DNA of 64,000 nucleotides from Escherichia coli (GTDB taxonomy: Bacteria > Pseudomonadota > Gammaproteobacteria > Enterobacterales > Enterobacteriaceae), in NCBI RefSeq assembly GCF_003334785.1, contig NZ_QOWV01000001.1; one strand, 5' to 3'. Under the pieces are notes generated by a model. It ran no database searches and had not been told where the DNA came from. It was given only the letters and a program-made list of their open reading frames with translations. The translations under genes were made by a program, and so were the position numbers. This document shows positions 30,012 to 34,023 of the stretch, one piece after another. Positions within the stretch are counted from its first letter, which is position 1; each line of letters opens with the position of its first letter.

Positions 30012-30753
30012 TAAACAAGCCATTGCAGCGGCATTTGGTCGGGCAGCCGCACACTATGAGCAACATGCAGATCTACAGCGCCAGAGTGCTGACGCCTTAC
30101 TGGCAATGCTTCCACAGCGTAAATACACCCACGTACTGGACGCGGGTTGTGGACCTGGCTGGATGAGCCGCCACTGGCGGGAACGTCACGCGCAGGTGAC
30201 GGCCTTAGATCTCTCGCCGCCAATGCTTGTTCAGGCACGCCAGAAGGATGCCGCAGACCATTATCTGGCGGGAGATATCGAATCCCTGCCGTTAGCGACT
30301 GCGACGTTCGATCTTGCATGGAGCAATCTCGCAGTGCAGTGGTGCGGTAATTTATCCACGGCACTCCGCGAGCTGTATCGGGTGGTGCGCCCCAAAGGCG
30401 TGGTCGCGTTTACCACGCTGGTGCAGGGATCGTTACCCGAACTACATCAGGCGTGGCAGGCGGTGGACGAGCGTCCGCATGCTAATCGCTTTTTACCGCC
30501 AGATGAAATCGAACAGTCGCTGAACGGCGTGCATTATCAACATCATATTCAGCCCATCACGCTGTGGTTTGATGATGCGCTCAGTGCCATGCGTTCGCTG
30601 AAAGGCATCGGTGCCACGCATCTTCATGAAGGGCGCGACCCGCGAATATTAACGCGTTCGCAGTTGCAGCGATTGCAACTGGCCTGGCCGCAACAGCAGG
30701 GGCGATATCCTCTGACGTATCATCTTTTTTTGGGAGTGATTGCTCGTGAGTAA
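29998..30753 (+). CDS. bioC: Malonyl-ACP O-methyltransferase
   Basis: Start placed at [15 protein letters not shown]; SAM methyltransferase motif LDAGCGPG; 251 aa. Confidence 0.92.
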
Positions 30754-31423
30754 ACGTTATTTTGTCACCGGAACGGATACCGAAGTGGGGAAAACTGTCG
30801 CCAGTTGTGCACTTTTACAAGCCGCAAAGGCAGCAGGCTACCGGACGGCAGGTTATAAACCGGTCGCCTCTGGCAGCGAAAAGACCCCGGAAGGTTTACG
30901 CAATAGCGACGCGCTGGCGTTACAGCGCAACAGCAGCCTGCAGCTGGATTACGCAACAGTAAATCCTTACACCTTCGCAGAACCCACTTCGCCGCACATC
31001 ATCAGCGCGCAAGAGGGCAGACCGATAGAATCATTGGTAATGAGCGCCGGATTACGCGCGCTTGAACAACAGGCTGACTGGGTGTTAGTGGAAGGTGCTG
31101 GCGGCTGGTTTACGCCGCTTTCTGACACTTTCACTTTTGCAGATTGGGTAACACAGGAACAACTGCCGGTGATACTGGTAGTTGGTGTGAAACTCGGCTG
31201 TATTAATCACGCGATGTTGACTGCACAGGTAATACAACACGCCGGACTGACTCTGGCGGGTTGGGTGGCGAACGATGTTACGCCTCCGGGAAAACGTCAC
31301 GCTGAATATATGACCACGCTCACCCGCATGATTCCCGCGCCGCTGCTGGGAGAGATCCCCTGGCTTGCAGAAAATCCAGAAAATGCGGCAACCGGAAAGT
31401 ACATAAACCTTGCCTTGTTGTAG
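30746..31423 (+). CDS. bioD: Dethiobiotin synthetase
   Basis: GTG start giving [17 protein letters not shown] (P-loop); 225 aa. Confidence 0.92.
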
Positions 31424-31582
31424 CCATTCTGTATTTGGTTAAATTGCGAGCGAGATCGCGTCTTCGATTGACTGCAATTTAACCAATTAAATTCTAAAAT
31501 AATCACGAAAAAAATTTTACTTCCGCCTCATGCGGCGAATGTGGGAATTGCCCAGGCGGCGGGGGATAGGGGCTGGAGACAG

Positions 31583-31605
31583 TTATCCACTATTCCTGTG
31601 GATAA
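31583..31605. promoter_or_regulatory. Inverted pair of DnaA-box-like motifs upstream of uvrB
   Basis: ttatccact and tgtggataa (both matching TTATNCACA) in head-to-head orientation. Confidence 0.6.
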
Positions 31606-31907
31606 CCATGTGTATTAGAGTTAGAAAACACGAGGCAAGCGAGAGAATACGCGGCTTGCACGCGAATTGGCGTTAAAGACGGCTCAAAGAAATATCTTTT
31701 ATTTTTTAACTGGTTAGATAAATGCAATGGCAGTCACTGAACAGGCATCTCTTGCCATAAAACTGTCATCACTCATCTTGACAAATGTTAAAAAAGCCGT
31801 TGCTTTGGGGATAACCCGGTAAGGCCGGAGTTTTATCTCGCCACAGAGTAAATTTTGCTCATGATTGACAGCGGAGTTTACGCTGTATCAGAAATATTAT
31901 GGTGATG

Positions 31908-31927
31908 AACTGTTTTTTTATCCAGTA
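31908..31927. promoter_or_regulatory. LexA (SOS) box of uvrB
   Basis: aactgtttttttatccagta contains CTG-N10-CAG about 75 bp upstream of uvrB. Confidence 0.8.
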
Positions 31928-32001
31928 TAATTTGTTGGCATAATTAAGTACGACGAGTAAAATTACATACCTGCCCGCCCAACTCCTTCAGGTAGCGACT
32001 C

Positions 32002-34023
<2,022 letters not shown>

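Follow-up and report, generated by a model that had tools for sequence, protein, structure and literature searches.

The window analysed here, a stretch of 64,000 nucleotides of Escherichia coli DNA, contains the bioBFCD-uvrB-yvcK-moaA region. Between bioD and uvrB lies a spacer of 578 bp (31424-32001), to which 5425 of 5426 complete E. coli genomes gave a match with the flanks annotated as bioD and uvrB. Positions 31276-32176 are base for base those of K-12 MG1655 (NC_000913.3, 812800-813700), and a core of three DnaA boxes at 31583-31617 corresponds to 813107-813141 (0.81 Mb) in the bioD-uvrB intergenic region of that strain. A LexA box and the proximal uvrB promoters follow further downstream (Table 1). 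An Rfam scan of 31000-32400 with E-values up to 1 yielded no match to an RNA family. Two small open reading frames, 31530-31676 (+) and 31590-31727 (-), were taken as non-coding, because the alignments contain indels and conservation follows blocks instead of codons.

Table 1. Features in and around the bioD-uvrB spacer, in positions of the window.
Feature	Position	Strand	Sequence and remarks
bioD	30746..31423	+	upstream neighbour, end of the bioBFCD operon
DnaA box I, DARS1 core	31583..31591	+	TTATCCACT; one mismatch (position 9) to TTATNCACA; MG1655 813107-813115
DnaA box II, DARS1 core	31597..31605	-	reads TGTGGATAA; perfect TTATCCACA
DnaA box III, DARS1 core	31609..31617	-	TAATACACA; one mismatch
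DARS1 core flank	31618..31680		conserved TTAGAAAA and CGAGAG..CGCGGCTTG; matches the published ~50-bp regulatory region of the 101-bp DARS1
Conserved block TTAGATAAATGCAA	31716..31730		near-invariant columns in 12 Enterobacterales
Conserved block CTTGACAAATGTTAAAAA	31776..31794		fixed distance from the distal box in Enterobacteriaceae
Distal DnaA box	31806..31814	-	TTATCCCCA; one mismatch; oriented as boxes II/III; 223 bp from box I start
LexA (SOS) box, LexA-box1	31910..31925		CTGTTTTTTTATCCAG; 20-mer 31908-31927 with 15/20 matches to TACTGTATATATATACAGTA
uvrBp2 -10 element	31926..31931	+	TATAAT; directly abuts the LexA box
uvrBp1-like promoter	31935..31963	+	TTGGCA-N17-TAAAAT; 10/12 matches in the promoter scan; -10 and -35 conserved in Enterobacteriaceae
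uvrB CDS	32002..34023	+	673 aa; ATG at 32002

Arrangement of the DnaA boxes, the LexA box and the promoters

A preliminary description of this DNA had reported two DnaA-consensus nonamers facing each other about 400 bp upstream of uvrB. Both were found there, 397 bp (box II) and 419 bp (box I) from the uvrB ATG, and box II is indeed a perfect consensus; box I, however, deviates from it by one mismatch, and the third box, at 31609-31617, had escaped the description. Boxes I and II are convergent (head-to-head) with 5 bp between them, while boxes II and III share one orientation and are separated by a 3-bp spacer, so that the core reads I-N5-II-N3-III with 1, 0 and 1 mismatches in the consensus scan. 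In the numbering of Wurihan (2018; PMC6015884), which runs from proximal to distal, boxes I and II are DnaA-box7 and DnaA-box6.

Taken singly, DnaA boxes with no more than one mismatch occur about as often as expected in the window (45 against 47 expected). Convergent pairs with a 5-bp spacer and at most one mismatch in total were searched for in the window and in 1000 dinucleotide shuffles of it. The window holds one such pair, the analytic expectation being 0.0005 per 64 kb and 0.04 per E. coli genome; any pair of this kind arose in one of the 1000 shuffles and the trio with box III in none. The convergent box pair is far above chance.

The LexA box that the description had placed near the proximal promoter was recovered as well, abutting TATAAT of uvrBp2 and lying 10 bp upstream of the -35 element of the p1-like promoter, and it overlaps core promoter elements. 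It has the layout CTG-N10-CAG, with A or T at 9 of the 10 spacer bases and CCAG in place of ACAG as its right arm. In footprint work the box lies between the -35 and -10 elements of uvrBp2 and is protected at the lowest LexA concentration tested, i.e., it is bound tightly, and a TG-to-GC mutant of the box has been published as well (PMC6015884). By sequence alone the match is unremarkable, as CTG-N10-CAG with an A/T-rich spacer turned up in half of the shuffles; the authenticity of the box follows from its position, its invariance in 11 other Enterobacterales and the published footprints. In all 11 of these species sampled, CTG, CAG and the T-rich spacer are unchanged and the box is situated 53-99 nt upstream of uvrB, and two of three Vibrio loci possess one too (CTGTATATATATACAG). 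Over all loci considered, a LexA box occurred upstream of uvrB in 13 of 76 against a shuffled mean of 3.8, confined to the Enterobacterales and the two Vibrio loci. Like other gammaproteobacterial LexA boxes of the form CTGT-N8-ACAG (recA, uvrA, sulA), the uvrB box has CTG and CAG arms 10 nt apart, an A/T-rich spacer, an overlap with the promoter and a LexA footprint. It differs by its right arm, which is CCAG in 10 of 12 Enterobacterales, whereas the Vibrio box is a perfect palindrome. The CCAG arm creates TTATCCAG, a weak DnaA-like nonamer (DnaA-box1; Wurihan, 2018), and in the window such a nonamer, TTATCCAGT at 31918-31926, overlaps the LexA box. Placed between the -35 and -10 elements of p2, the LexA box would bring uvrB into the SOS regulon, with LexA-repressed p2 and p1 together giving SOS induction.

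The distal promoter, uvrBp3, is presumed by us to lie ~320 bp upstream of p2. Its placement rests on the literature and not on the sequence, since a consensus scan detected no sigma-70 promoter-like site at 31570-31630. A terminator or attenuator between p3 and p2 at 31807-31840, including the scan hit formed by CCGGTAAGGCCGG and AGTTTTATCT, was considered and dropped, because its single-sequence fold was only slightly better than those of shuffles (z of -2.1) and the consensus fold of seven Enterobacteriaceae came to -1.2 kcal/mol with no compensatory pairs.

Conservation of the core and of a fourth DnaA box

To follow the core across species, a scan anchored on UvrB was run with one genome per species, which gave 80 loci; the pair was allowed at most one mismatch and box III at most two. 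Of the 80 species loci, 24 had the I-N5-II-N3-III core upstream of uvrB with its orientation unchanged, and 50 rounds of shuffled loci gave none. These 24 comprise all 11 Enterobacterales sampled besides E. coli, Aeromonas, three Vibrio, Shewanellaceae, Colwelliaceae, Pseudoalteromonas, Rheinheimera and one unclassified MAG, i.e., four named gammaproteobacterial orders and the MAG. Box II is perfect in every one of them, and box I always has exactly one mismatch, at position 9 or 4. The gene upstream is not in every case bioD, so the element keeps company with uvrB rather than bioD. The core is also retained in Pseudoalteromonas and Rheinheimera, where a gene for a MATE-family transporter is located between it and uvrB. 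Since the LexA box is limited to Enterobacterales and two Vibrio loci, the core has a broader distribution than core and LexA box together.

An alignment of 12 Enterobacterales species has a mean column identity of 61%, in which core and flank stand out as invariant islands; further islands are the short blocks at 31716-31730 and 31776-31794, TTTGGGGATAA at 31804-31814, the LexA box and the p1 elements. The conserved block CTTGACAAATGTTAAAAA was also inspected as a promoter on either strand and rejected, as no acceptable -10/-35 pair at 16-18 bp was seen by eye and none was returned by the scan. Within E. coli, an identity of 99% or more over 31577-31680 was recorded for 5405 of 5425 genomes, and over the adjacent 104-bp segments for 3223 and 3460 of 5423 (~60%). 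Near the core one SNP is common, at 31576, which does not fall into any of the boxes, and one natural strain has an IS1 inserted between p3 and p2. Taken as sequence comparisons, these data are consistent with an element selected for itself.

The distal DnaA box was surveyed in 28 loci with a core, from nine lineages, requiring at most one mismatch and the same orientation. Counted from the start of box I, it was found at +222 to +225 in Enterobacterales (11 of 12), +204 to +205 in Shewanellaceae, +201 in Pseudoalteromonas, +197, +207 and +220 in Vibrio, +204 and +236 in Aeromonas and +232 in the MAG L014; Rheinheimera and Colwelliaceae have boxes with two mismatches at +196 to +203 in four of five loci. 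The bins from +175 to +264 collected 24 locus hits from six of the nine lineages, and the other 45-nt bins between +40 and +490 zero to two each. The distance from core to distal box is nearly fixed within a lineage, and that from distal box to the uvrB ATG varies (118-200 bp in Enterobacterales, 259-620 bp in Shewanellaceae).

In published DnaA ChIP-seq data, DARS1 is among 16 bound regions, at 16-fold over control, and Table 1 of that study gives for it the 'double DnaA box' cTAATACACAtggTTATCCACAg (PMC11317965), which is the reverse complement of 31596-31618 and comprises boxes II and III. The summit listed for DARS1, 813331 (PMC11317965), was read in the numbering of NC_000913.3 despite the footnote of the table, because the polA, purH and datA summits then fall 2-12 bp from their boxes. 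Read in this way it equals position 31807 of the window, on the distal box and ~200 bp downstream of core boxes II/III, not on the core. Summit offsets elsewhere were -2 (polA), -2 (datA), -12 (purH), -36/+26 (DARS2), +53 (nrdD) and +92 (nrdA), the offset at DARS1 being the largest among the loci checked. As a caveat, the peak at DARS1 is a low one (16-fold), and an offset is also seen at nrdA, the other peak of low strength.

'Potential' boxes were listed in the area of the distal box with no function given (Wurihan, 2018; PMC6015884), and in the papers on DARS1 consulted here, among them Wurihan (2018), Sugiyama (2019), Katayama (2017) and Kasho (2025), we found no description of the distal box as a conserved part of DARS1. 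Located 197-236 bp downstream of the core, the distal box probably belongs to the DARS1 module and not to the uvrB promoter. A tentative extension, which we hold to be possible but rather doubtful, is that DARS1 is a two-part element composed of the 101-bp core and flank plus a fourth box at a lineage-specific fixed distance. The distal box may loop back onto the core complex and there load or stabilise DnaA, a role known from datA and DARS2, in which distant sites loop back on the core. Alternatively, DnaA bound to it could form a roadblock, specific for orientation, which would shield DARS1 and p3 from the proximal promoters of uvrB.

Assignment of the core to DARS1 and comparison with related sites

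A DARS core consists of boxes I-III, with box I opposite box II at 5 bp and, in DARS1, a box II of complete consensus (Sugiyama, 2019; PMC6868365). The region studied here has three 9-mer DnaA boxes with box I opposite II and III, the 5-bp (I-II) and 3-bp (II-III) spacers of DARS1 and DARS2, a full-consensus box II flanked by one mismatch each in I and III, and a position between bioD and uvrB. Box II was reported as the only full consensus in DARS1, the others having single mismatches (Kasho, 2025; PMC11724364), and the agreement of the 1/0/1 pattern in the window with this report supports the identity. DARS1 was delimited to 101 bp, consisting of the core and a region of ~50 bp which boosts ADP dissociation in vitro (Katayama, 2017, review); a flank of this kind adjoins box III in the window and is strongly conserved, its stimulatory activity being taken from the literature. 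Moreover, DnaA-boxes 5, 6 and 7, which are the three distal ones in the promoter region of uvrB, have been equated with DARS1, inside uvrBp3 (Wurihan, 2018; PMC6015884). The original description is that of Fujimitsu et al. (2009), represented here by its citation in PMC6868365, PMC5742627 and PMC6015884. Nothing was observed that speaks against the assignment. With high confidence, the region is thus regarded as two adjacent known modules, DARS1 (~31578-31680) and the proximal uvrB promoters p2 and p1 under LexA.

What the present analysis contributes to this is the sequence identity, geometry and conservation of DARS1; the steps of reactivation come from the literature, where they were demonstrated in vitro and in vivo for this very sequence. 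There, the protomers bound to boxes I and II lose their ADP by way of an AAA+ contact in head-to-head arrangement, for which Gln208 is required, and box III supports assembly (Sugiyama, 2019; PMC6868365); box I, opposite box II, is essential for ADP release (PMC6868365; PMC11724364). In this published scheme, ADP-DnaA first occupies the perfect box II, from which further protomers are recruited, head-to-head to box I and head-to-tail to box III. ADP is then expelled by the head-to-head dimer that boxes I and II carry, and apo-DnaA departs and binds ATP, by which ATP-DnaA is regenerated. DARS1, as established in the literature, acts on DnaA by ADP release and regeneration of ATP-DnaA, rather than being simply acted on, and the head-to-head geometry is the defining feature of DARS function. 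Because of this geometry, because the flank is conserved and because the core persists at a distance from uvrB, we infer that the function selected for in the core is the reactivation of DnaA. Deletion of DARS1 was published to lower the number of origins per mass as well as fitness in LB and in mouse gut colonisation. DARS1 is nevertheless dispensable and its deletion phenotype mild, so that published opinion differs on how much it matters quantitatively. The activity of DARS1 is lost when transcription is forced through it, and the native site was reported to have very low transcription.

At the same locus, DARS1 of E. coli K-12 has the identical sequence with nothing different; the window carries the reference allele. 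DARS2, upstream of mutH, has the same core offsets of 0, +14 and +26 in MG1655, where box I (+) starts at 2969135, box II (-) at 2969149 and box III (-) at 2969161. It differs from DARS1 by mismatches in all three core boxes, by a perfect box at +211 from box I in the orientation opposite to the distal box of DARS1, and by its requirements: DARS2 depends on IHF, Fis and negative supercoiling via a long regulatory region, whereas DARS1 in vitro needs DnaA alone and is independent of supercoiling, according to the literature. The datA locus, at which DnaA-ATP is hydrolysed, resembles DARS1 as a non-coding cluster of DnaA boxes that alters the nucleotide state of DnaA and is a ChIP-seq target; however, it promotes ATP hydrolysis and not ADP release, needs IHF and has another box arrangement. 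Boxes II and III, with their 3-bp spacer and the repression of p3, are comparable to the same-orientation 'double DnaA boxes' of the DnaA-repressed nrdA, mioC, dnaA, polA and purH, but those sites have been described without the convergent N5 box, the feature tied to ADP release.

Operator and reactivator roles of the box pair

DnaA involvement at a distal uvrB promoter, as the preliminary description had proposed, is documented. ATP-DnaA protects DARS1 strongly in DNase I footprints (Wurihan, 2018; PMC6015884), and a TG-to-CA change in the perfect box II derepressed uvrBp3-lacZ 5.9-fold (PMC6015884). In the same paper, chromosomal uvrB transcription was more than 3-fold up in dnaA(A345S) cells, and relative to the full region p3 alone gave ~20% and p1-2 ~30% of the plasmid activity (PMC6015884). 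Reviews credit DnaA control of the distal promoter to van den Berg (1985). Among the checks named in that description were DnaA ChIP and fusions with mutated boxes, and its refutation was to be an absence of occupancy and of any mutational effect; both occupancy (PMC11317965) and an effect of mutation (PMC6015884) are in print. The proposed coupling of excision repair to initiation status has stood in so far as it is documented, but it is secondary, and the main identity of the head-to-head pair, DARS1, had been missed.

According to the literature, the boxes overlap the weak promoter uvrBp3 and their occupancy by DnaA represses p3 too, as plasmid fusions of the mutants show. It could be asked whether the pair is primarily a DnaA operator of uvrBp3, through which excision repair follows initiation status in parallel to LexA at the proximal promoter. 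Footprints, box II mutant and dnaA(A345S) cells (PMC6015884) all agree with this, as does the fact that all Enterobacterales and two of three Vibrio loci have both the core and a LexA box upstream of uvrB. Yet a simple operator needs neither a head-to-head pair with a third box at the exact spacing of DARS2 nor a conserved flank of ~60 bp, and the core is kept both where a gene for a MATE transporter intervenes between it and uvrB and in lineages that have no LexA box upstream of uvrB. The modest output of p3 alone, the very low chromosomal transcription reported for DARS1 and the IS1 between p3 and p2 in one natural strain likewise argue against p3 control as the main purpose, which we consider very unlikely. 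Operator and reactivator roles can coexist, and this low estimate concerns the operator as primary or only role.

Two further readings do without DnaA as the selected partner. The inverted repeat might have been selected as an RNA or DNA hairpin, for example a terminator of bioBFCD read-through or a cruciform, with the likeness to DnaA boxes being secondary: GTTATCCAC-N7-GTGGATAAC was picked up in the terminator scan as a stem of 9 bp with a tail moderately rich in T, and as transcription is reported to abolish DARS1 activity, a terminator upstream would make sense. However, compensatory change is missing, for lineages with TTACCCACA as box I keep TTATCCACA as box II, so that C is opposed to A in the stem; what is conserved in either arm is the DnaA consensus and not merely complementarity to the other arm, the tail CATGTGTATT is box III itself, and Rfam gave no match, which leaves this reading hardly any probability. 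Chance co-occurrence of motifs without function, in an intergenic region rich in A and T, could be argued from the chance rate of single near-consensus boxes and from the LexA-like matches in half of the shuffles. The scarcity of the pair and the absence of the trio in shuffled sequence, the conservation of pair, trio and LexA box across orders and the published binding and mutant data are at odds with it; given conservation and shuffle results this explanation, practically without likelihood, is already refuted.

Apart from the distal box, the finding is one already known, with DARS1 described in 2009, the distal uvrB promoter and its DnaA boxes in 1985 and 2018, and the uvrB SOS box in the early 1980s. 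The sole addition of this work is the conserved distal box anchored to the core at about +200 to +225, which may be undescribed. Returning to DARS1, its physical overlap with the promoter of an SOS gene does connect the control of replication with repair, a connection already examined experimentally, and the head-to-head geometry signals an element that resets the nucleotide state of the initiator and is not just a repressor site. If the distal box is functional, it would suggest a wider definition of DARS1 and a regulatory architecture in vivo.

A distal DnaA box downstream of DARS1

Beyond the three DnaA boxes of the DARS1 core in the bioD-uvrB spacer, a fourth box was found (see table), and comparison of the loci showed that it is kept, oriented like boxes II and III, 197-236 bp downstream of the core in at least six lineages. 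The position of this distal box is tied to the DARS1 core and not to uvrB. A published DnaA ChIP-seq summit, 813331, corresponds to window position 31807 and hence lies on the distal box. Coordinates in Table 1 of the ChIP-seq study that lists DARS1 are given, according to its footnote, as NC_000913.2 (PMC11317965); when this table was compared with NC_000913.3, the double boxes of polA, purH, datA, nrdA, nrdD and DARS2 fitted the peaks only in NC_000913.3 numbering. Two strongly conserved blocks separate DARS1 from the distal box, the second of which, CTTGACAAATGTTAAAAA, is restricted to Enterobacteriaceae and stands at a constant distance from that box.

Features of the bioD-uvrB spacer and of compared uvrB loci (L-numbers)
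Feature	Location	Position	Strand	Remark
Long inverted repeat GGTTAAATTGC...GCAATTTAACC	window	31438-31485		directly past bioD stop codon
Strongly conserved block TTAGATAAATGCAA	window	31716-31730		between DARS1 and distal DnaA box
Strongly conserved block CTTGACAAATGTTAAAAA	window	31776-31794		between DARS1 and distal DnaA box
Fourth (distal) DnaA box	window	31806-31814	-	orientation as boxes II and III
Counterparts of distal DnaA box	L002-L017, L022, L025, L027, L028, L033, L035			
Target duplication ATGGTGATG of IS1 (L092)	window	31899-31907		9 bp; directly upstream of LexA box
Weak DnaA-like nonamer TTATCCAGT	window	31918-31926		inside LexA box; DnaA-box1 of Wurihan 2018
MATE-family transporter gene	L025	1610-2989		
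MATE-family transporter gene	L021	1572-2936		

The LexA box and separation of the core from uvrB

In 10 of 12 Enterobacterales the uvrB LexA box has CCAG as its right arm, where the consensus has ACAG, and this difference gives rise to the nonamer TTATCCAGT. Two of the three Vibrio loci possess the perfect palindrome CTGTATATATATACAG as LexA box. In a single isolate, E. coli VL7S7 from human stool (L092, NZ_CM177009.1), an IS1 element physically parts DARS1 and the weak distal promoter uvrBp3 from the proximal uvrB promoters. A gene for a MATE-family efflux transporter, encoded on the same strand, is situated between a DARS1-like core and uvrB in both Pseudoalteromonas and Rheinheimera, with the core approximately 330-415 bp upstream of this gene.

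The DARS1 core and its surroundings

Sequence search revealed the DARS1 region to be absent from one of 5426 E. coli genomes, and in the E. coli genome search matches to it occurred on plasmid-typed records in two places. The inverted repeat behind bioD, which was not scored in the terminator scan, may be the terminator of the bio operon, shielding DARS1 from read-through.

Within the core (window 31583-31605 and the core loci), box II matches the consensus perfectly in all 24 species possessing it, whereas box I is perfect in none and deviates by exactly one mismatch in each of the 24 loci, either at position 9 (T, C or G) or at position 4 (C). This pattern suggests selection for an asymmetric head-to-head pair of a strong and a weak box, or selection against a perfect palindrome.
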